Source of the DNA: Macrostomum lignano | Lineage: Eukaryota | DNA: 64,000 nucleotides | Direction of reading: 5' to 3' | Assembly: GCA_002269645.1 (NCBI GenBank) | Contig: NIVC01000460.1 | Span: 1-64,000, forward strand | Shown: positions 1 to 17,500 of the stretch, one piece after another | Position numbering within the stretch: position 1 is the stretch's first letter | Layout of the letters: each line of letters opens with the position of its first letter | Notes under the pieces: generated by a model | Seen by the model: only the letters and a program-made list of their open reading frames with translations | What the model was told of the DNA's origin: nothing | The model's database searches: none | Made by a program: the position numbers and the translations under genes

Positions 1-828
1 AGAAGATAATCGTATAATACTACTATAAGTAAGTAAGTACACGCATGTGCGCCTAAGCTTTGAATGAATCACGCTACCAGAAAAAGATGTTACCAGAATA
101 ATACGCCATGAGCCATTTTCCCCTTTTAGCGCAACACGTGAATTGTCATGATACTATTTTGGATCAAAAACTTGTCTATAAATACAAGCGATCTGAAGCG
201 GTACCGGAGCCATTCTCCCCACGGAAGAGGAGCGCTCCGAAGAGGAAGCCTTAGGAGGACTTCCTGATCTACCAAGTCAATCGAGACTCGGTCGAGTTGT
301 TGCGGTAAGCCTTCCTTATTTGCGCCCGTTGTGTTAGAGACGTCTCGCTCAAGTCTATTGAGACTTGAGTCTAATTGAGTCTGTTGAGACTCTTGAGTCT
401 GTTTAGACTCCATTGGTTGCAGTCTCCAGAAGGACTGCCCCTGATAGATCTTAGAGGACTATCAGTGGTTTCCGGAGCTATACCTAGAGTGCATAGAGGC
501 ACTGCTAGAAGAAGGAGGCTTAATTTAGACCGCAGTTTGGCGCAGGGTACCCATTGTTGCTACGAGGCCTCTGATTGGTCCTGACGGAAGATACCGGCCG
601 GAAGAACTTATCGGAAGTACAAGAGGAACCAGGACCAGAGCAACTGAAGAATCAAGGCGCCTGATCTACGAGATCTACTGACAAGTTCCTAGCGAGAACT
701 ACTCAAGAAATTCAAATCCGGATTAAAGGTAATTGAATACCTTCGTTTGACTTACTGGGTTGCCTAGCTGTTGAGCTAGAAGTGATTGTTCCTTGATTAT
801 CGAAAGTCGGGTAATAAGGAACACATCA
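1..828 (+). repeat. 5' LTR of element 1 (truncated by window start)
   Basis: Matches 9759-10586 with no difference seen by eye; ends ...ACACATCA; TATAAATA at 177-184, ATTAAA at 722-727. Confidence 0.95.
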
Positions 829-830
829 AT

Positions 831-848
831 TGGTGATCTCGCCCTCTC
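831..848 (+). promoter_or_regulatory. Primer binding site candidate (TGGTGATCTCG...), possibly tRNA-Trp
   Basis: TGG 2 nt after LTR end; first 11 nt can pair with a metazoan tRNA-Trp 3' end (...GGGGUCACCA) using two G:U pairs. tRNA identity uncertain. Confidence 0.55.
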
Positions 849-1543: not shown

Positions 1544-4500
1544 ATGGCGCGGCGCAATCCAACGGTACACAGAGACATCAAAGAAACGGTCGGTACTTTC
1601 TCGATGGAGAAAGATTTTAACACATTTGTCGACCATTTTGACCTGGTATGTAGGGAATACAACCTACAAAATCCAGAGAAGGCACAGCTGCTGCCACCTC
1701 TTCTCCAAGGTACTGCGCGAGAAATTTACGGCAAGCTGGATGCGGCAACACAGCAAAATTATCCAGCACTAATCATTCAACTGCGCGCGCATTTCAACCG
1801 TTGCGGCACAAACAGATCAGTGCTGCTGCACAAGTTGCATAACAGAAGGATGCAAGCAACAGAATCCTTCCTCGCCTTTGTGGACGATATCCGCCAGATA
1901 ATTAAGGCACTGCATCAGCCACCGCTGCAAGCTGCGGACCAACCACCACTGGGAGCGGCAGAATTGGCCGCCAGAGAAAGACAACGATTGATGGATCGTG
2001 AACAAAACCTCATCCTGCACGTAATAAACAACGCACAGCCGTCACTTCGGGATAGACTTTTGCGTGAAAATATCGAAACCGAAGAAGACCTTTTGCGTTG
2101 CGGAATGCAATGGGAAGCCAGTGCCCCATTAATGACGACAGGCAACAATGAAGTGCAGAAACTGACGCAGCAACTAAACAAGTTAATGCAGCACCAGACA
2201 GCTGCTATCGCCGAACAAAAAAGACGAAATGAACAAGCCTCAGCCAGATGTTACTACTGCGGACAAGAAGGACATTATCAGATTAATTGTCCTCATTGGT
2301 CAACAAGATACGACAAGCCGCGACAGATATTCAACAATCAGAAGCCGCAGAAACCATGGCAGCACTATCAAAATCGCCAACAACAAGGAATGAGACGCTT
2401 CGGAAATGATAGACGCTTCGGAAATAATGACCGCTCCGGAAATGATGGCCGCTTCGGAAACGAAGGCCGCTTCAGAAGTAATGGCTACAGGCCACGCAAC
2501 GTCAGATACACACAAAGACAGCCGACGCAAGCAATGCCACGATACGCGAATGCCATCACGTACACACCGGAAAATGAACAGCAAGAACAGCAAGTGTTCA
2601 CAATTGACGACTTGGAAATGGACTTCACAGTCCCGGAACTTGACATCAGCTTGATCGAAAAGAAGACGACGCACGAGGACAACACTGACAACACAGAAGA
2701 GACGAATGAAACCGAAATGATCAAATTAAAAGAGACCACCGGAGACAGCAGAGAAAACAGGAAGAAAGTAAATCACAAGACAAGGGAGGAGGCGGAGAGC
2801 GACATCGGCAACGAAGAAAAGATGAAAACCGGCGAAGAAAACAACTATGAATCGACAACAGTGGATGACGACAAAACGAGCATGAAAGACAAAGAAATGA
2901 AAGAAGAAGAAGAATGTAGAAGTTACGGCAACGACCACGACTGCGAGGTGCGTGATGACACGAACGACTACCAAGCCGAAAGAGGAATGCAGGAAGAACC
3001 GAGAGCGGAGAATCTAAGTTCCGACAGCGATCAAGGCTACGAAATACAATGGAAAGATGAAGAAATGGAAAAAGAACAGGTGAAAGAAAAGCCGAGTTCC
3101 GACAGCGACGAATGCTACGAGATCCGATACAAACGAAATGGTGAAGCCTATATTCAAACGGTCGACTACAAGACAGAGAAAAGATACCAAACGCAATGGA
3201 GTGAAACAACGGAAACATCGGAAGAAGCCGCAGACGAAGATAATGAAATAACCAAAAAGCAAAGCGAATCAGAAGCCTTCCGCCTGGATCAGCCAATGGA
3301 ACAACCGAAAGAATATGATGCGGACATGGAAGATAACGAATGGCGATCGCAGCCAATGCCAGCAAGGACAACGGCAAAATCCAAGAAGTGGAAAAACTGG
3401 CTATTCTGGATCATCGTGATACTACTGATAGCAGTAGTCGCCAAAGCAACGGCAACGGAAAAGCCAATGATTTGTCCAACGGATGCGCATATCCAACCGA
3501 TGATCTACAAGATACCAACCGACATCAAATGCAGTTACTTCAAGACAAACCAGACAAAACCAAAGAAGATTACACTCGATCTCTACAAGGCTAACATCAA
3601 GAAGCATCGACAACACGGGATAGTATGCTTCAGAGACAAGCACCTGGTGGAAAAAGTTTGGCGCGGACAATGGAACCGGATCCGATTTAAACAACATGAG
3701 CTACATGTGTCGCACGCGGAATGCCTACAATGGAATCAAACACTATTTTCAAAGGATGGTGAACTGGAACCAGATGAGAAGGTCGGCAACGCACAGCTGT
3801 TCAGAACAAAGAATTCAGCCAACGGTCGATATATTCACTTCTTCGGAAAATGGAAAGAATATATGGCACGCAACAGCTACTTGATCAGAAATATTCCATT
3901 CTACTACAATCCGTACGAGAAAATGGAATCGTTACAGCTGCAACTAAGCGAATGTCGATACAGTGAAGGATGGTGTCCAACGCCGATTCTACGGAAGGAA
4001 GAACTACACAGTCTACCACTGAGTCCAACATATCATCAAGACTATCGATGGCAGATTGAGCACAGAGCACAATCACACTATGAGGAACCGTACAAATCAC
4101 GACAATACTTCTTCGCGTGGGAAGTTGAGCCGGAAATTGACTGCAAGCTTCAAAAGTATCACACAGTTGAAGGAGGACTACTGTCAAATACGTTTTTGGC
4201 AAAGTCAGGAGACTTGGCACTGACGTTTCAAAAGAAACCAGTCGAGCAAAAACTGAAATGCAAGGATACAGACAAGACACTATTCATCTCGGAACAAGAG
4301 ATACCAGTCTACGTAAAGGATGAAGACAAACAAACCTTCTTGGCAATCATCAATGGAACGTATCAGCAACAAGAAAAACAGAATAGAAGACGACGTGACA
4401 TCGAACGTCCCAAACTGGTGTCAAACCGGCTGTTGTCAGCAAAGATAACGGCTTTGGATCACAATCTACACAACCAGTTAAACCACTTGCATCGAACACT

Positions 4501-5344
4501 GGTCCAGCTAACTTGCAAAATGCACGCAATCAACTTAAATTATGCCAGACAAAACTACTATGTCAACCCTACGATGACTTTTCGTAAAATCACCGGAATG
4601 ACGAACGTTTTGGCAGTTCCAATATACGAGCATCTGTTGATATACAAGTGCACGCCGATACAGCACTTTAACATCTTGCCGTCAAACACGTCAACAACCT
4701 GCTACGATAAGCCAAGGATTGAAGCGTTCTACGAAGGAAAACGAATTCAGGGATTCTTGGACACGGTACACAACATCATCGTTGGCACCGCAATACCGAG
4801 ACCTTGCACCACGGCAGTAAACTACTATCAACTGGACAATGCACTACACGTCATCAAAACAACTGGAACGACAGCAAACGTCACAGAACCGGAAGTAATC
4901 GTCGACGAAAACTACGACATGGAGGATTTGAAAATCCGATTCAACAGAACGAAGTATACGCCATTCGCCGATATCCAACTTGACGAGATAACACCAGGAT
5001 GGACGATCAACGACTTCTTGCAAGCGTTCATCACCCAACGCAAGATGATTCACCAGCTGTTCACAAGAAAGGACAAAGGAACCGGGACAGGAAGATTTCC
5101 CGTCCTTGTTTCAATGGACAGCGCCATCAAATCATTTTGGACAAATAGCTTCTGGGAGCTGCTCAATGGAAGAGGCAGTCTCTATCAAGGATTCATCTTC
5201 TACGGTGCTTGCATTGTGTGGATTGTCACGGCAATCTTCATCATTTCATCGATCGTACGGTGCTTCAGTCAAACTTGTCCAAGAGCTAAGAAGACAGTGA
5301 ATGCCATAATGCAAAGAACGACAACGGAAGCGACAACAGTTTAG
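1544..5344 (+). CDS. gag-env: Gag-Env polyprotein (1266 aa): capsid, CCHC knuckle, acidic linker, internal signal peptide, class III (gB/chuvirus-like) glycoprotein with C-terminal TM
   Basis: CYYCGQEGHYQINC knuckle at 2249-2290; hydrophobic WKNWLFWIIVILLIAVVAKATA from 3389; RRRR furin-type site 4385-4396; Cys-rich NPT..C..CY.KP...GFLD..C block; several N-x-S/T sites; TM FIFYGACIVWIVTAIFIISSIV about 5192-5257. Confidence 0.88.
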   Translation: MARRNPTVHRDIKETVGTFSMEKDFNTFVDHFDLVCREYNLQNPEKAQLLPPLLQGTAREIYGKLDAATQQNYPALIIQLRAHFNRCGTNRSVLLHKLHNRRMQATESFLAFVDDIRQIIKALHQPPLQAADQPPLGAAELAARERQRLMDREQNLILHVINNAQPSLRDRLLRENIETEEDLLRCGMQWEASAPLMTTGNNEVQKLTQQLNKLMQHQTAAIAEQKRRNEQASARCYYCGQEGHYQINCPHWSTRYDKPRQIFNNQKPQKPWQHYQNRQQQGMRRFGNDRRFGNNDRSGNDGRFGNEGRFRSNGYRPRNVRYTQRQPTQAMPRYANAITYTPENEQQEQQVFTIDDLEMDFTVPELDISLIEKKTTHEDNTDNTEETNETEMIKLKETTGDSRENRKKVNHKTREEAESDIGNEEKMKTGEENNYESTTVDDDKTSMKDKEMKEEEECRSYGNDHDCEVRDDTNDYQAERGMQEEPRAENLSSDSDQGYEIQWKDEEMEKEQVKEKPSSDSDECYEIRYKRNGEAYIQTVDYKTEKRYQTQWSETTETSEEAADEDNEITKKQSESEAFRLDQPMEQPKEYDADMEDNEWRSQPMPARTTAKSKKWKNWLFWIIVILLIAVVAKATATEKPMICPTDAHIQPMIYKIPTDIKCSYFKTNQTKPKKITLDLYKANIKKHRQHGIVCFRDKHLVEKVWRGQWNRIRFKQHELHVSHAECLQWNQTLFSKDGELEPDEKVGNAQLFRTKNSANGRYIHFFGKWKEYMARNSYLIRNIPFYYNPYEKMESLQLQLSECRYSEGWCPTPILRKEELHSLPLSPTYHQDYRWQIEHRAQSHYEEPYKSRQYFFAWEVEPEIDCKLQKYHTVEGGLLSNTFLAKSGDLALTFQKKPVEQKLKCKDTDKTLFISEQEIPVYVKDEDKQTFLAIINGTYQQQEKQNRRRRDIERPKLVSNRLLSAKITALDHNLHNQLNHLHRTLVQLTCKMHAINLNYARQNYYVNPTMTFRKITGMTNVLAVPIYEHLLIYKCTPIQHFNILPSNTSTTCYDKPRIEAFYEGKRIQGFLDTVHNIIVGTAIPRPCTTAVNYYQLDNALHVIKTTGTTANVTEPEVIVDENYDMEDLKIRFNRTKYTPFADIQLDEITPGWTINDFLQAFITQRKMIHQLFTRKDKGTGTGRFPVLVSMDSAIKSFWTNSFWELLNGRGSLYQGFIFYGACIVWIVTAIFIISSIVRCFSQTCPRAKKTVNAIMQRTTTEATTV

Positions 5345-5529
5345 AACTAACAGAAACTGCACATTGTGAGGTTCAAGGGCAACCGACACTAGCAACGCGG
5401 CTATATCCATCGATTCCGACAACACCAACGGCACCAAGGATACAACCACCCAACTATCAAGCAGAACAGCACGAGCCAAAATGGCCGGAAAACTACGTCT
5501 GTACGCTACACGCCGAGATTGGCAAAGCA

Positions 5530-8500
5530 ATGGCTCAGGTCATTGTCAACAACTTGCCATGTCGAGCACTACTGGATTCAGGCAGCTCGATCACAGTCAT
5601 CTCGCAACAATTATGCAACAAGCTACGACTCGCGGTACGACCAGCAGCAATCGCAGTTGCAGGAGCAGGAGGACATTCACTCAACATCCTAGGAAAAGCA
5701 GATATCGACTTGAAAATTGCTAATAAACAGCTGACGGTCCCGACGTACATCATCGACAGACTACCAAACCAAGACGTCATCGTTGGAATCGACACGTTCA
5801 AGCAGCTTCAACTACCATTGACCTTCGACTTCAACAAGCAAACGTTTAGGATCGACACGGTGGAGCAACCGCTGATCAACCAGATTCGAGTACTACCGAA
5901 AGTAACTCTGCAGCAAGATGTCATTATCCAGCCTGAAAGCGCATGCTGGGTCAGAGCGAAAACGACCAGCGCGGCAGATGAAGCAATGATATTTGATCCA
6001 CACAGGAGAGTCACGGCAAAACATCAAATCATGATGCCTACGGCACTAGTGCTGGTTGCAAAGGATAAGCAACTGCCAGTACAAATCTTCAACCCGAACA
6101 CAGAAACGGTTCATCTACGACAAGGAATGTGCATCGGTCATCTCAACACCCAAGCATCGGTTATGCTGATTGAACAAGCGACTCCACGACTAACAGAGGA
6201 AGAATTTCAAAAGAAGATCAATTTGGATGACAGCCCGATTACGGAACAGCAAAAGAGGAAAGTTCGACAGCTGTTGTGGAAGTACAACGAAGCCTTCTGC
6301 CATCATGATTACGACATCGGACGAGCCAAGGACATCAAACAGGAAATCAAACTTCTGCCGCACACGGAACCAATTCAGTGCAAGCCGTACCCGATCGCCA
6401 AGCATCTGCAACAACACTTTGACGAAATCATCGATAAAATGCTAAAGCACGGCATCATCAGCAAAGCTATTTCGGCTTACTCCTCACCGTGCCTACTGGT
6501 ACAGAAGAAGGAGACAAACGAAAGACGACTCGTATGCGACTTCAGACTGTTGAACAAGTACATACCGACGGATCAGCAAAGCCTACCGAAGATCTCCGAA
6601 CTACTAGCAAAGCTCAACACGGCAAAATTGTTCACGGTGTTCGACCTACGTCATGGATTTTGGCAAATTGAAATCGAGAAAGAGTCACGACAGTACACGG
6701 CTTTCAAAACCTACAATGGACAAGTATACGAGTACAATCGATCGCCGATGGGACTTAGCAACAGCCCAGCAACGATGAGTCGACTAACAGCATACATGCT
6801 AGCAGGATGCACGAACCTGCTGCACTATGTCGACGACATTTTAGCCTACGGAGAGGATTTCGAGCGACTCTACGAAGCTACGGAGAAGGCCCTAGCGCTC
6901 ATTCAACGCCAAGGTCTGAAGCTACAACCAACTAAATGCAAATTCTTCCGAGACAACGTGCGTTACCTGGGACATCAGGTGACAGCCAAAGGAATCTCAC
7001 CGGACCCAGACAACGTGGAAAAGGTGAAGAAGTTTCCTACGCCAACCAGTATAACGAAGGTCCAATCATTCCTTGGACTTGCGCAATACTTCAGGAAGTT
7101 CTTACCTAACTTCGCAAAGACAGCAAAGCCACTGTACGACCTGCTCAAGTTCGACAAATGGAAGCAAGACAACTGGACACAGAGACAACAGGAAAGTTTC
7201 GACGAAATCAAACGACAGCTGACATCAGACGCACTGCTACAGCATCCGGACTTCGACAAGCCCTTCATCATCGAGACAGACGCCTCAGGAACGGGACTCG
7301 GAGCAGTCCTACTACAGGAAACCGAGGACAAGAAGGAACGACCTATTGCCTACGTCAGTCGAGCACTCAAACCAAATGAAACAAAGTGGTCAGCTACGGA
7401 ACGAGAGCTACTAGGAGTCTTGTTCGCCCTGCGACAGTTTCATTACTACATCTATGGTTCTCCAATACAGACGATAGTACGCACGGATCATGCACCATTG
7501 ACCTACGTCGTAACTACAAAAGGACAGACCAACAACCGACTCATCAGAATGACACTCAAGATCCAGGATTACAACTACAAACTCGTCTACAAACCAGGAA
7601 TTACCAACAAAGCCGCGGACGCCCTGTCAAGAGCCTATGAAGTCAACGCCATTCATCCAATCCCTAACATCAAGGAGTTGGTGGATGAAACCGAGCGCGA
7701 CAACTTCTACCAAGCGGTTAAAGACGACGACAAGAACATCAAACTCAGTCCCATGGAACGAAAATTCCTACGCAAGCAACGACAACACCTAACAATCAAT
7801 AAGTCACGGCTCTACTGGATGAGCGACAATAAACCCAAGATCTACATACCATATTCGTTTCGGCAAGCAATTCTCAACGAGCTACACGACAACCCACTCG
7901 CTGGACACCTGTCGGCAGCAAAGACCATCGCGAGAGTGGAACAATACTACTTTTGGCCAACTATGTACGGCGACATCAAGCAGTATTGCAACAACTGCCA
8001 TTCATGTGCTGCATCAAAGACAGGACGACGACAGAAACCGCAGCTACAGTCCATTCCGAAGTCGACTACAATGGACTGTCTAAGCATCGACATCACCGGA
8101 CCGCTACCACCGAGCTGTCTCCAGGGCATCGCCTACACCTACATTCTAACCGCCTTGGATATCTTCTCGAAGTTTGCTATCGCCATACCGATACCGGACA
8201 TCACAGCTCAGACAGTGGCAATGAGTTTCTTCAACGAAATCATTTGCAAGTACGGCACGCCGAAGAACCTCACATCGGACAACGGATCGCAGTTTACATC
8301 GCAACTGTTTCAGCAAGTCGTAAGGATTCTCAACATTACGCAGATCTACACATCGACCTACAATCCGAAGGCAAACATGGTTGAACGGTTTCACCGCAAC
8401 CTGCACGAGATGATTACACATTTCGCGCACCAACAGCCGGAAGACTGGATCATCTACCTGCAATCTGTAACAATGGCCTACAACAGCGCTATTCATCGAT

Positions 8501-9039
8501 CAACGGACAATACGCCATTCTTCCTAATGTTTGGACGAGACTTCCAACCGCCGAATCTGCTCGCACAGCAATTGCTACCATCGCAGTACGTGGAAGTACC
8601 GACTTCCATTCAGAAATTCGTCACGCAACTACACCTCGCATGGAAGATCGCCAAGCACAACATTGACAACCAGGTGGCTCTGACCACCGGCAACGACGCG
8701 AGATCGACAACCCTGACGGCCGGCGACATCGTCTACCTACACTACCCGCCACAGCAGACGCATAAACATGCACAGAAGTACAAAGGACCCTATCGAGTGG
8801 TCCAACTAACGTCACCAACAACGGCACGCCTGGCTAATGTACAAGATCCACATCAGCACCAGTTCTACGTACACATTCATCGACTAAAGAAGATCAACAC
8901 TGACACAGCGACGTTTCTACCGACATTAGACAACGCTGATCGCACGCGTTCAACGAACCGCCACATCGCGACGAAGCACGAGGAGACTCAAACGACAGAT
9001 GTGAGCCAGCCACATGGCTACAACCTACGACCACGCTAG
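5530..9039 (+). CDS. pol: Pol: aspartic protease, RT, RNase H, integrase (frame open from 5290)
   Basis: LLDSGS protease, YVDD RT (6826), FIIETDASG RNase H, HDNPLAGH..CHSC zinc finger, integrase SIDITGP / SDNGSQF / VERFHR; no internal stops. Confidence 0.97.
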   Translation: MAQVIVNNLPCRALLDSGSSITVISQQLCNKLRLAVRPAAIAVAGAGGHSLNILGKADIDLKIANKQLTVPTYIIDRLPNQDVIVGIDTFKQLQLPLTFDFNKQTFRIDTVEQPLINQIRVLPKVTLQQDVIIQPESACWVRAKTTSAADEAMIFDPHRRVTAKHQIMMPTALVLVAKDKQLPVQIFNPNTETVHLRQGMCIGHLNTQASVMLIEQATPRLTEEEFQKKINLDDSPITEQQKRKVRQLLWKYNEAFCHHDYDIGRAKDIKQEIKLLPHTEPIQCKPYPIAKHLQQHFDEIIDKMLKHGIISKAISAYSSPCLLVQKKETNERRLVCDFRLLNKYIPTDQQSLPKISELLAKLNTAKLFTVFDLRHGFWQIEIEKESRQYTAFKTYNGQVYEYNRSPMGLSNSPATMSRLTAYMLAGCTNLLHYVDDILAYGEDFERLYEATEKALALIQRQGLKLQPTKCKFFRDNVRYLGHQVTAKGISPDPDNVEKVKKFPTPTSITKVQSFLGLAQYFRKFLPNFAKTAKPLYDLLKFDKWKQDNWTQRQQESFDEIKRQLTSDALLQHPDFDKPFIIETDASGTGLGAVLLQETEDKKERPIAYVSRALKPNETKWSATERELLGVLFALRQFHYYIYGSPIQTIVRTDHAPLTYVVTTKGQTNNRLIRMTLKIQDYNYKLVYKPGITNKAADALSRAYEVNAIHPIPNIKELVDETERDNFYQAVKDDDKNIKLSPMERKFLRKQRQHLTINKSRLYWMSDNKPKIYIPYSFRQAILNELHDNPLAGHLSAAKTIARVEQYYFWPTMYGDIKQYCNNCHSCAASKTGRRQKPQLQSIPKSTTMDCLSIDITGPLPPSCLQGIAYTYILTALDIFSKFAIAIPIPDITAQTVAMSFFNEIICKYGTPKNLTSDNGSQFTSQLFQQVVRILNITQIYTSTYNPKANMVERFHRNLHEMITHFAHQQPEDWIIYLQSVTMAYNSAIHRSTDNTPFFLMFGRDFQPPNLLAQQLLPSQYVEVPTSIQKFVTQLHLAWKIAKHNIDNQVALTTGNDARSTTLTAGDIVYLHYPPQQTHKHAQKYKGPYRVVQLTSPTTARLANVQDPHQHQFYVHIHRLKKINTDTATFLPTLDNADRTRSTNRHIATKHEETQTTDVSQPHGYNLRPR

Positions 9040-9159: not shown

Positions 9160-9594
9160 ATGGGCAACGCACTGTCAAAACAGGCGCCCCAGCCTCAGCA
9201 GCTATATGACTGCCCGATATGTTTAACTGATGACTTGGCTGTCAAGCCACCGACTATTTGCATCAATGGACATAAAGTTTGCGGACAATGTTTAAGTGAT
9301 TCACACTATATTCAGCCCTGGCAGAGTTGTCCCCTCTGTAGAGATAGTTTGCGACAATGTGCCTATTGTTATTCTTGGCGCACGTTTCAATATTGTAACC
9401 ACCAACATTTTATTTGCATGCACTGTTTGAAGCAAACCGCTAGTAGGGGCATTATAGGATGCCCCTTATGTAATAGTATGCCGCGAGACTGCACGTTTCG
9501 AAAGTGGTGTCGTATCAAACCTGATGCCACTCGATGTCTACGCGATATTCGAGTTTTGACCGCTATATGTACTGAAAAGTTTTTAGAGTTTTGA
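9160..9594 (+). CDS. Accessory double-RING zinc-finger protein with N-myristoylation motif (144 aa)
   Basis: ATG at 9160 gives MGNALSK; RING1 CPIC..CINGHKVCGQC..CPLC; RING2 CAYC..CNHQHFICMHC..CPLC; lies between integrase stop and PPT. Confidence 0.85.
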   Translation: MGNALSKQAPQPQQLYDCPICLTDDLAVKPPTICINGHKVCGQCLSDSHYIQPWQSCPLCRDSLRQCAYCYSWRTFQYCNHQHFICMHCLKQTASRGIIGCPLCNSMPRDCTFRKWCRIKPDATRCLRDIRVLTAICTEKFLEF

Positions 9595-9683: not shown

Positions 9684-9720
9684 AAAACTCGGGACGAGTT
9701 TTTTCGTAAAAAAGGGAGAT
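9684..9720 (+). promoter_or_regulatory. Pre-PPT hairpin and polypurine tract
   Basis: AAAACTCG-GGA-CGAGTTTT hairpin followed by AAAAAAGGGAGA, just upstream of the TG start of the 3' LTR. Confidence 0.8.
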
Positions 9721-9722
9721 TT

Positions 9723-10586
9723 TGTAGAGTGTTCTACCTCCCGTTAAAAAAGGAAAAAAGAAGATAATCGTATAATACTACTATAAGTAAGTAAGTACAC
9801 GCATGTGCGCCTAAGCTTTGAATGAATCACGCTACCAGAAAAAGATGTTACCAGAATAATACGCCATGAGCCATTTTCCCCTTTTAGCGCAACACGTGAA
9901 TTGTCATGATACTATTTTGGATCAAAAACTTGTCTATAAATACAAGCGATCTGAAGCGGTACCGGAGCCATTCTCCCCACGGAAGAGGAGCGCTCCGAAG
10001 AGGAAGCCTTAGGAGGACTTCCTGATCTACCAAGTCAATCGAGACTCGGTCGAGTTGTTGCGGTAAGCCTTCCTTATTTGCGCCCGTTGTGTTAGAGACG
10101 TCTCGCTCAAGTCTATTGAGACTTGAGTCTAATTGAGTCTGTTGAGACTCTTGAGTCTGTTTAGACTCCATTGGTTGCAGTCTCCAGAAGGACTGCCCCT
10201 GATAGATCTTAGAGGACTATCAGTGGTTTCCGGAGCTATACCTAGAGTGCATAGAGGCACTGCTAGAAGAAGGAGGCTTAATTTAGACCGCAGTTTGGCG
10301 CAGGGTACCCATTGTTGCTACGAGGCCTCTGATTGGTCCTGACGGAAGATACCGGCCGGAAGAACTTATCGGAAGTACAAGAGGAACCAGGACCAGAGCA
10401 ACTGAAGAATCAAGGCGCCTGATCTACGAGATCTACTGACAAGTTCCTAGCGAGAACTACTCAAGAAATTCAAATCCGGATTAAAGGTAATTGAATACCT
10501 TCGTTTGACTTACTGGGTTGCCTAGCTGTTGAGCTAGAAGTGATTGTTCCTTGATTATCGAAAGTCGGGTAATAAGGAACACATCA
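9723..10586 (+). repeat. 3' LTR of element 1 (864 bp, TG...CA)
   Basis: Starts TGTAGAG after PPT, ends ACATCA; matches window 1-828. Confidence 0.95.
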
Positions 10587-14527: not shown

Positions 14528-17500
14528 CTACCCAGCCGCAGTCTCGAACCGGACATAGATGCTGGCCACGTAGGACATGACGGCATTCCAGTCCGGCCGC
14601 TCCACGGACACCATATCGTCCAGACTCAGCGTAGTCTTTATCCCAGCTGACTCGGCCGCTTTGAAAGCCACCAGAAAATTTCTGCGCTTATCCTCTGGCG
14701 TCAGCTGGGCGTAGGGCACCCGGTCCGGCAGGTAGCGGTGCAGCAGGCCGCACATCGCCATGCCGTCATTCCAGGAGCTGGAGAAGTTGGTCACCTCGGT
14801 GTGCGGGTAGCCGGCCAGGCAGCTCTGGCACCAGCGCAGCAGGCCGTTCCGCTTGGAGCCGCCGTGCCGCTTGGCCAACTCAGCCAGGGGGTCCGCAGTG
14901 GGAGTTGAGATGCCCGACGACGGAGCGGCAGCCACTGAGGAGCTCGCCGGGGCTGGCGACGGTCGAAGCTGACAAGAGGACTGCGGCAGCGGCTGCGGCA
15001 GCTGCGATGCGGAAGGATTTAACGGCGGCGGAGTGACGTCATGCTGGGCCGACAGGGAGGGCGACTCGTCGCGAATGGACTCCAGTGCCGTGGTGGACAT
15101 GTTGGGGTAGGAGCAGCGGATGAGAGCGGACTGGCCCCAGGAGCTGCCGCTGCGGCTGAGCGGATGGCGGAGCTGCTGCTGCTGCTGTGGCTGCTGCTGC
15201 TGATCCGGATTCTGCTGAAGCTGCTGCTGCTGCTGCTGTTGTTGCTGCTCCAGGGGAACCGTTGGAACGCTTGTGCGACGGGTTTTCACCTGGATTAATA
15301 AGTAAAACAAATGATTGATAGGCCCAAGGAAATATATTCTGACGATGTGATATCAAATCATATCAACTGGAAAGTACACCTAAAACCCATTGAAACTACA
15401 CATCAAACCCACCGGAAACTGCACATCAAACCCACCGGAAACTACACATCAAACCCACCGGAAACTGCACCCCAAACCCACCGGAAACTACACATCACAC
15501 CAATCGGAAGCTACACCCAAAACCCACCGGAAACTACACCCAAAACCCACCGGAAACTACACCAAGAAACCCACCCGAAACTACACCCAAAACCCACCGG
15601 AAACTACACCCAAAACCCACCGGAAACTACACACCAAACCCACCGGAAACTACACCCAAAACCCACCGGAAACTACACCAAGAAACCCACCGGAAACTGC
15701 AACCCAAACACACCGGAAACTACACCCAAAACCCACCGGAAACTACACACCAAACCCACCGGAAACTACACCCAAAACCCACCGGAAACTACACCCAAAA
15801 CCCACCGGAAACTACACCCAAAACCCACCGGAAACTGCACCCCAAACACACCGGAAACTACACCCAAAACCCACCGGAAACTACACCCAAAACCCACCGG
15901 AAACTACACCCAAAACCCACTGGAAACTACACCCAAAACCCACCGGAAACTACACCCAAAACCCACCGGAAACTACACCCGAAACCCACCGGAAACTACA
16001 CCCAAAACCCCCCGGAAACTGCACCCCAAACACACCGGAAACTACACCCAAAACCCACCGGAAACTACACCCAAAACCCACCGGAAACTACACCCAAAAC
16101 CCACCGGAAACTACACCAAGAAACCCACCGGAAACTGCACCTAAACGCACCGGAAACTGCATCCCCAAAACTCACCGAGTCGGCAACCGCAGTCGCTGCC
16201 GCGGCAGTCGGCGGGCTGTCGGGACTCGGCCCTCGCTTCACGGTCTCCTCAATAGAATGGATGAGAGATTTCACCTGAGTAGAAGCGGCCTGCCTCTGCT
16301 CCAATTTGCGCAGAGCCCGCATATTGGCCAGCTCTTTGCCAACTGTGCTGGCCAACTCGCGGCTGGGAAAGTCGCGCTGCTGCTGCTGCTGTTGCTGTTG
16401 CTGCTGTTGAAGCTGCTGCTGCTGCTGCAACTGCTGCAGTTGGCTCTTCAGATGTTCGAGTTCACTACGAGCCGAAGTCAGCTCGGCCATTAATTTCCTG
16501 TTGTCCTCGCTCAGCTGGCTCCGCTCCCGAGTCCAGTCCGACAGCAGCTTCTCCGCTTCCTGCTTGACATCGTCCGCCACCTGCACTGTGCGCAGCAGGT
16601 CCTGCTCGTACGAGCGCCATTCGTCGAGCTCTTGGGCGGCTCGCTGCTCAGACTCCTGTGTGAGTATAGAAGCAGGTGTGACGATGCAATGATGCAGGAA
16701 GTTTTTGAAATCCCCTTACATGACACCGGAAATTTCCTATCTTTGAAATCCCTAAAACACCGGAAATATTCCATCATTGAATTCCCTAAAACACCGGAAA
16801 TATCCTATCTTTGAAAACCCAAAACACCGGAAATATCTCATGCTTGAAATCCCCACAACACCGGAAATATCCGAACAACACCGGAAAAATCCCAACAACT
16901 CCGAAATTATCCAATTCTTAAACTCTCCAAAACAACGGAAATATCCTATCTTTAAAATCTCAAAACACCGGAAACACCCCATCTTTAAAATCCCAAAACA
17001 TCGGAAAAATCTCATCCTTGAAATCCCTACAACACCGGAAATATCCCATCCTTGAACTCCCTAAAACACCGGAAATATCCTTTCCTTGAAATCCCAAACA
17101 CCGGAAATATCCCATCCTTGAAATTCCAAACACCGGAAACATGCTCACAGCCAGTCGAACCCGCAGGCTCTCGCAGGCAGCCTCAGATTCGGTCAGCTCG
17201 GCCTCCAGCCTCTTGGCTCGATCCGCCTCAGCTTCGGCGGCTGCCCTAGCATCGGCTGTGGCCGTCTGCTGGCTGGCCAGCGACTCGGCCAGGTTGCGTC
17301 GCTGCTCACCGGCAAGCTGCAGCTCCTGCGCCTGCTGCTGCAGCTGATCGCGCAGCTCCGATGCAGCCTTCTCGGCTGATAGGCGAAGGTCTTGGAGCTG
17401 GCCGGTCAGCTGCAGGTTGGACTCGTCTAGGCGGCTCAGCTCCTCCTGCATCCGGGAGCGCGGGTTTCCGGGGAGATTAGAAAGGGGAAACATGGAAGAC

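Follow-up and report, generated by a model that had tools for sequence, protein, structure and literature searches.

What the segment between an envelope protein and a polymerase is for, and how the two come to be joined, are questions raised by the first 10,586 nucleotides of a 64,000-nucleotide stretch of Macrostomum lignano DNA (contig NIVC01000460.1 of assembly GCA_002269645.1, positions 1 to 64,000 of the forward strand; this whole stretch is referred to as the window). [quoted passage not shown] A sequence-only reading of the window had placed the motifs in a second reading frame and proposed that a non-canonical -1 frameshift or a splice would append them and Pol to the Env cytoplasmic tail, with a 1-bp indel splitting one giant open reading frame (ORF) as the fallback. 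We report here that the fallback is borne out, that two of the three motif types recur in divergent relatives, and that we lean towards an interpretation in which ESCRT-recruiting late domains have moved from Gag to the fusogen tail and would drive budding from there, with binding and release predicted from sequence. The features on which this argument depends are as follows.

5189..5245, + strand: TM2, the Env anchor helix, followed by Cys and basic residues (hydropathy)
5246..5484, + strand: cytoplasmic tail of Env with the linker that joins it to the protease (read in a single frame by the majority of copies, broken in the window copy)
5325..5329, + strand: site at which the window copy lacks one base that most copies have, creating the apparent ORF1 stop and -1 overlap (copy alignment)
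5401..5415, + strand: LYPSI, an ALIX-type YPx[LI] motif (YPSI invariant in 52/52 copies, first residue L or M)
5425..5436, + strand: PTAP, a TSG101-type motif (invariant in 52/52 copies, with silent changes present)
5446..5457, + strand: PPNY, a NEDD4-type PPxY motif (P, P and Y fixed in 52 copies; x is N, T, I or G)
5482..5487, + strand: Trp-Pro pair 30 residues ahead of the catalytic Asp, a candidate N-terminal cleavage site of the protease

Env and Pol share one frame in most copies

The layout described in the sequence-only reading is present in the window, where the pol frame is open from 5290, lies -1 relative to ORF1 and overlaps its end (stop codon at 5342-5344), with the first pol-frame ATG at 5530, a CTAACAG at 5347-5353 and no X XXY YYZ slippery heptamer in 5201-5360. 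Of the 40 scored copies that a genome search gave, the window included, 34 have one more base than the window at 5325-5329, and in 32 a single frame free of stops runs through TM2, tail and protease (in two long copies it is interrupted instead by another single-base loss near 5282). The short form found in the remaining six copies, the window among them, is the source of the two-ORF layout. The longer form was also present at full depth in the contigs of three of four public sequencing runs, and a joint near the CTAACAG, as the splice proposal implied, did not appear, with none ending near 5353 in the contigs of the four runs (contigs drop rare variants). Reading through is not confined to the window family, as a single frame is also found at 16 of 20 further loci (among them those of a family that shares 63% Env identity) and at nine of 11 loci of other Env families. 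In addition, 12 of the 66 protein-level matches sit in open frames of 2,370-2,538 codons, a named record of UniRef carries Env, the transmembrane helix, the tail and Pol on a single chain, and 14 of 35 tails from distant homologues run on into a protease motif.

No frameshift is needed, because the window copy is one base short and most copies read through; what stood of the earlier proposal is the addition of late-domain motifs and Pol to the Env tail, which is constitutive and involves no change of frame. A functional two-ORF class with a programmed non-canonical -1 shift or splice at 5347-5353 could still be argued for on the grounds that the same short junction occurs in six of 40 copies, that the contig of the fourth run breaks at 5327, and that rare variants are lost from contigs. 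We consider this very improbable, given that the overlap has no slippery heptamer, the out-of-frame layout is not conserved among copies and relatives, and two haplotype backgrounds, both of which also include a longer allele, carry the short form in an assembly rich in single-base losses (in 32,435 bases of alignment, 24 near-identical copies had 14 other deletions, no insertions and 89 substitutions). An assembly error most probably explains the split in the window copy, or, failing that, the copy is dead; an apparent recoding site is thereby corrected to a probable artefact of assembly. A start at ATG 5530, which would lie just 15 residues ahead of the catalytic Asp, seems likewise unnecessary.

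The site at 5325-5329 is also a variable spot in the tail, with three different longer alleles among the copies (loci L001-L040) and runs. Stray deletions in 52 copies were not enriched in runs of at least two identical bases (28 of 72 vs a 43% background), a comparison that is confounded by alignment gaps in divergent copies and was not used.

The motif cluster in the window family

As the sequence-only reading had it, 5401-5460 in the pol frame encodes 20 residues with all three motif types. Such a cluster is unlikely by chance, as in 300,000 shuffles each the full set arose once from the natural tail of 93 residues and 30 times from the 20-mer. In the majority form the motifs lie some 50-70 residues past TM2 and end about eight residues ahead of the Trp-Pro pair, and from this position after TM2 the segment with its P[TS]AP, YPx(n)L/I and PPxY matches would be on the cytosolic side of the membrane. 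A scan of Gag (1547..2608) found no P[TS]AP, PPxY or [LIM]YPx[LI], and ORF1 has one bare YPxL at residue 113 with no hydrophobic residue ahead of it. When 52 copies were compared, three of the 21 codons in 5398-5460 were found to change a residue (the L/M before YPSI, an I/M, and the x of PPxY) and nine to vary silently, with residue changes in six of 12 codons before this block and in five of five after it. The Trp-Pro pair is found 30-35 residues ahead of the catalytic Asp in seven of eight host lineages. Retroviral proteases favour aromatic-Pro cleavage, and we suggest that the pair marks the protease N-terminus, where a cut would keep the motifs attached to the Env tail.

Conservation across lineages in the host genome

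Seven other lineages of related elements in the same genome have tails that are only 17-37% identical to the window tail, and in them the order of the motifs is swapped. P[TS]AP was found in five of these and [LIM]YPx[LI] in six, compared with shuffle means of 0.15 and 0.04 and with neither count reached in 100,000 shuffles; as the eight lineages (the window family included) form only about four deep groups by protease identity, with the motif pair in three of the four, these shuffle p-values overstate independence. Conservation among related elements, the absence of which would have undone the sequence-only reading, can therefore be claimed for PTAP and YPx[LI]; for PPxY it holds only in part, with none in the seven lineages, confinement within this host to the window family, and three occurrences among 35 distant tails.

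In the family at 63% Env identity, PTAP comes first and IYPKI second, opposite to the window's order; its tails share 35-37% identity with the window's, and none has PPxY. Its RPEPTAP resembles HIV-1 (human immunodeficiency virus 1) p6. Another polyprotein from the same host (2,852 residues) has PSAP and LYPTL. Four further lineages were found with the Env Pfam model, which is blind to the tail, and these have PSAP with IYPTI, LYPKI (with PPAP), PSAP with LYPTI, and in one case no motif. As a control, 45 of 46 loci were placed into nine other protease families of the genome, none of which has any of the motifs within 115 codons upstream when three frames are read; seven of the nine have a CCHC knuckle within 375 nt, and therefore no env in between. 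Late domains are known to be position-independent (PMC2958808), and on this sequence comparison the P[TS]AP and [LIM]YPx[LI] motifs appear to be conserved more than their flanks and independently of position, while PPxY is not conserved across lineages. The motifs look selected.

Motifs in distant Env homologues

A wider search returned 52 Env homologues, of which 35 gave a tail. Six were left out beforehand (P0003, from the same family, and P0005, P0027, P0031, P0038 and P0050, with N-terminal matches only), a further six ended before TM2, four had no TM2 over threshold (among them P0007, which has a PSAP near its C-terminus), and one had a tail of less than 30 residues. P[TS]AP is present in six of the 35 tails (shuffle mean 0.34; 0/20,000 shuffles) and remains so in five of 34 when P0006, which is from the same host, is excluded (0/8,000 shuffles). 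YPx[LI] is present in five (mean 1.28, p 0.008), and any of the three motifs in 12 (mean 2.45), with a motif rate in tails approximately 12 times that in the remainder of the same proteins. Other orders of the motif letters are rare; the exceptions, TAPP and SAPP, can share letters with the motif. One of the motif-bearing distant proteins is labelled Haemonchus contortus. These comparisons strengthen the predicted late-domain assignment and extend it beyond the window element.

We also note LWPHL, SWPKL and LWPAL in the tails of P0016, P0030 and P0044, where others have LYPxL; these are possible Trp variants of that motif and were not counted.

Host ESCRT partners

The host genome encodes both a TSG101 ubiquitin E2 variant (UEV) domain and an ALIX V domain. 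The UEV keeps ten of the 12 PTAP-contact residues listed in PMC11670305 (T92, S94, M95, Y68, N69, I70, P139, V141, S143 and R144), and the C-terminal helix of the V domain aligns to human ALIX, being conserved around EGxKFY with KFY intact. The Phe of KFY has a functional role. The same open frame continues past the V domain to a PSAP; no PSAP was found in frame for HRS within the locus examined, where introns limit the search. The YPxI form is known to bind ALIX or PalA in yellow fever NS3 and PacC (PMC10532540). A predicted complex of the host UEV with a 33-residue tail scored 0.30, with the mark at 0.34 and controls not folded, and was used neither way. The two substitutions in the UEV (Y63H and F142V at L091) are shared, by equal score, by all three scored genomic copies, and could represent drift or escape from late-domain users.

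Proposed mechanism and alternatives

In the mechanism we propose, most copies would express one polyprotein of about 2,500 residues, which at the DNA level runs from Gag through an acidic linker, a first transmembrane helix (TM1), a gB-like ectodomain, TM2 and the tail to protease, reverse transcriptase, RNase H, then integrase. With two membrane passes, Gag and the tail with Pol would face the cytosol and Env would lie in the lumen, where signal peptidase and furin could process it. PTAP, YPx[LI] and PPxY in the tail would then recruit TSG101/ESCRT-I, ALIX and NEDD4-type ligases where the tethered precursors assemble, and ESCRT-mediated scission would set an enveloped particle free, either at the plasma membrane or into an endosome, as the motif conservation and known late-domain biology suggest. 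The protease would free itself at the conserved Trp-Pro, with the motifs staying on the Env tail.

A number of results weigh against this interpretation besides the limited independence of the host lineages and the restricted distribution of PPxY. The enrichment of PPxY in the distant tails is not significant (mean 0.91, p about 0.06), and with P0006 excluded YPx[LI] falls to four of 34 tails, a count reached by 328 of 8,000 shuffles. None of the three motifs is present in 23 of the 35 distant tails or in one of the eight host lineages (L119/L120), and the motifs are therefore not required across the group. One copy of the 63% family (L041) has PNAP in place of PTAP, and one host lineage has PPAP. 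Within the window family the entire 21-codon block is conserved, beyond the motif letters, and because of this, conservation within the family alone does not single out the motifs. The control set is small at nine families, with the absence of env shown for seven. Both substitutions in the host UEV fall in the main proline pocket. Finally, binding, budding and particles are predictions from sequence.

Chance matches in a proline-rich, disordered linker might be suspected, as the motifs are short, the segment is rich in Pro and most distant tails have none. The composition-preserving shuffles, the persistence of the motifs through order swaps and the rarity of other orders of the letters leave this reading with very little credence; on the sequence comparisons it is largely refuted for P[TS]AP and may still hold for PPxY. 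It is also improbable that the YPxI-type motif is simply a YxxPhi endocytosis signal of the Env tail for AP-2, with ALIX uninvolved and PTAP binding some other proline-binding partner. YPSI, YPKI, YPTI and YPTL all fit YxxPhi, and motifs of this type regulate the traffic of the Env proteins of murine leukaemia virus (MLV) and M-PMV (Mason-Pfizer monkey virus) (PMC1592117), but Pro follows the Tyr and L, I or M precedes it in all seven host lineages with the motif, YxxPhi without Pro is not enriched in the 35 distant tails (22 observed vs 19.7 expected), and P[TS]AP is left unexplained. The tyrosine motif may be used for both AP-2 and ALIX.

The motifs might instead bind ESCRT for sorting and disposal, sending surplus Env-tail-Pol to multivesicular bodies and lysosomes and so correcting a 1:1:1 ratio of Gag, Env and Pol with no release of particles. 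All of the conservation evidence fits ESCRT binding for either purpose, the motifs sit on membrane cargo, which is the normal ESCRT substrate, and a single ORF yields as much Pol as Gag. Equal output of the two is unusual for retroelements. We nonetheless judge this explanation unlikely, as motifs of three classes occur together here in the way they do in clusters of viral late domains (PMC7923801), and as the modelled fusogen ectodomain appears intact with a gB-like fold, which points to extracellular particles.

We therefore return to late domains on the fusogen tail that would drive budding, and the evidence, which is of sequence, suggests that these elements leave cells as enveloped particles. 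A broader proposal is that in flatworms and other invertebrates the gag-env-pol retrotransposons with a single ORF are enveloped viruses that bud through ESCRT and are built unlike retroviruses, with Gag, fusogen and Pol co-tethered 1:1:1 and late domains on the fusogen tail beside the protease; this we regard as evenly balanced between right and wrong. If so, only membrane bearing Env could bud, and scission would have to outrun protease activation in the manner of HIV, where the speed of ESCRT races protease activation (PMC4900648). The mechanism of transmission outside Drosophila is described as unknown in PMC13524379, and whether env-carrying retrotransposons there leave cells as infectious particles is an open question in the field. 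Motifs that are under selection and predicted to bind ESCRT would argue for membrane scission, at the level of sequence, without relying on env itself; they also point to host genes open to knock-down in a laboratory flatworm.

Identity and other features of the element

The 5' and 3' LTRs are 100% identical over the 828 nt present (1..828 vs 9759-10586), and the remaining features of the element are listed here.

1..828, + strand: 5' LTR, cut by the contig start (identity to the 3' LTR)
831..842, + strand: primer-binding site (PBS) (sequence; equals the PBS given for Mlig_errantivirus_2 in the eLife supplement)
1547..2608 (end approximate), + strand: Gag with a CCHC knuckle from 2249 (Pfam zf-CCHC E 5.7e-4; motif scan)
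2609..3400 (boundaries approximate), + strand: acidic linker between Gag and Env, 32% D+E
3401..3457, + strand: first hydrophobic helix (TM1), with basic residues ahead, a probable internal signal or signal-anchor (hydropathy)
3470..5180, + strand: Env ectodomain, class III (herpes gB-like) fusogen fold (AlphaFold model, Foldseek, weak Pfam PF24664 match)
5485..9039, + strand: Pol, with protease (DSGS 5575-5586), reverse transcriptase, RNase H, then integrase in Ty3/gypsy order (Pfam)
9160..9594, + strand: accessory double-RING ORF (weak Pfam RING matches)
9708..9719, + strand: polypurine tract (PPT) (sequence)
9723..10586, + strand: 3' LTR, TG...CA, 864 nt

With its LTRs, PBS, PPT, CCHC Gag and a pol order of protease, reverse transcriptase, RNase H, integrase, the element is a Ty3/gypsy LTR retrotransposon (Metaviridae), an assignment which rests on domain order and the classification in PMC13524379. 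The ectodomain has 12 Cys, six N-glycosylation sequons and a furin-type RRRR at 4385-4396; its AlphaFold model (pLDDT 75.8, pTM 0.49) gave the gB of HSV-1 (herpes simplex virus 1) as the best Foldseek match (E 5e-21). Env between gag and pol, and a gB-like class III ectodomain bounded by hydrophobic helices, make it an HSV/gB-type GAG-ENV-POL errantivirus. The closest named protein in UniRef, which matches 41% of the Env query at 98% identity, carries the label Macrostomum lignano, and the PMC13524379 supplement (Chary and Hayashi, eLife 2026) lists a gB-type Mlig_errantivirus_2 with 16 copies. Because the PBS and LTR length agree with this entry, the window element is very likely the catalogued Platyhelminthes_Rhabditophora_Mlig_errantivirus_2.

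The acidic linker (2609-3400) is far more variable than its flanks between subfamilies, and is perhaps a flexible tether that allows Gag to assemble away from the membrane. The double-RING ORF (9160-9594) has a longer version in another copy, together with a second RING ORF. It starts with MGxxxSK, which we take to be a myristoylation-like pattern, and the 63% family has two double-RING ORFs without this N-terminus. A search for homologues found none at E 0.001 or better; its Atlas neighbours are viral RING proteins (0.87-0.92) and arenavirus Z (0.88), which we treat as a lead only. The ORF could encode a membrane-bound ubiquitin ligase that aids budding or counters host defence. In two other Env lineages (L134, L137 and L143) the RING ORFs 3' of pol give way to another accessory ORF, some 255 residues long.

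Beyond the element, 10600-49100 of the window contains numerous unrelated minisatellite arrays with units of 8-33 nt. The end of an ORF at 14528-15352 (- strand) resembles what we take to be a calponin-homology domain of the MICAL/cytospin/smoothelin type, and presumably this is a host exon.

Comparison with known systems

A continuous gag-env-pro-pol ORF has reportedly been described in nematode NERVs (by Sacco et al. in 2022 in J Gen Virol). Like the window element, these also have env ahead of pol (cited in PMC13524379), and they belong to hosts of a different phylum. The window element shares its gene order, gB-type Env, two flanking transmembrane helices, PBS, LTR of about 864 nt and many near-identical copies with the HSV/gB-type errantiviruses described in PMC13524379, the main text of which mentions neither late domain, ESCRT, budding or PTAP, nor single ORF, fused, frameshift or cytoplasmic. 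Atlas virus, a nematode Bel/Pao element, likewise combines capsid, enzymes and fusogen in a single Gag-Pol-Env polyprotein (bioRxiv 10.64898/2026.03.22.711591), but differs in having a class II Env at the C-terminus, whereas the window element belongs to Ty3/gypsy and has a gB-like Env before Pol; the preprint text has no mention of late domains, ESCRT or budding. PMC8402826 makes no mention of retrotransposons, and our literature search, which covered few subscription papers, returned no report of late domains in gag-env-pol elements. On this limited search, the element class and gene order are known already, and the late-domain motifs on the Env tail are seemingly new.

The closest parallel for the motifs themselves is found in the retroviruses, where the same classes are clustered just upstream of the protease (PTAP and YPXL in HIV-1 p6, LYPSL in Rous sarcoma virus, and PPxY in MLV, in M-PMV and in human T-cell leukaemia virus 1; PMC7923801, with the LYPSL of Rous sarcoma virus from a reference title in PMC8402826). 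Retroviral late domains are located in Gag, whereas the window element has none in Gag and instead carries the motifs after the Env transmembrane helix, with Env and Pol chained to Gag. Late domains on the fusogen tail of a polyprotein that spans the membrane twice would represent a different way of coupling Env incorporation, budding and the timing of the protease.

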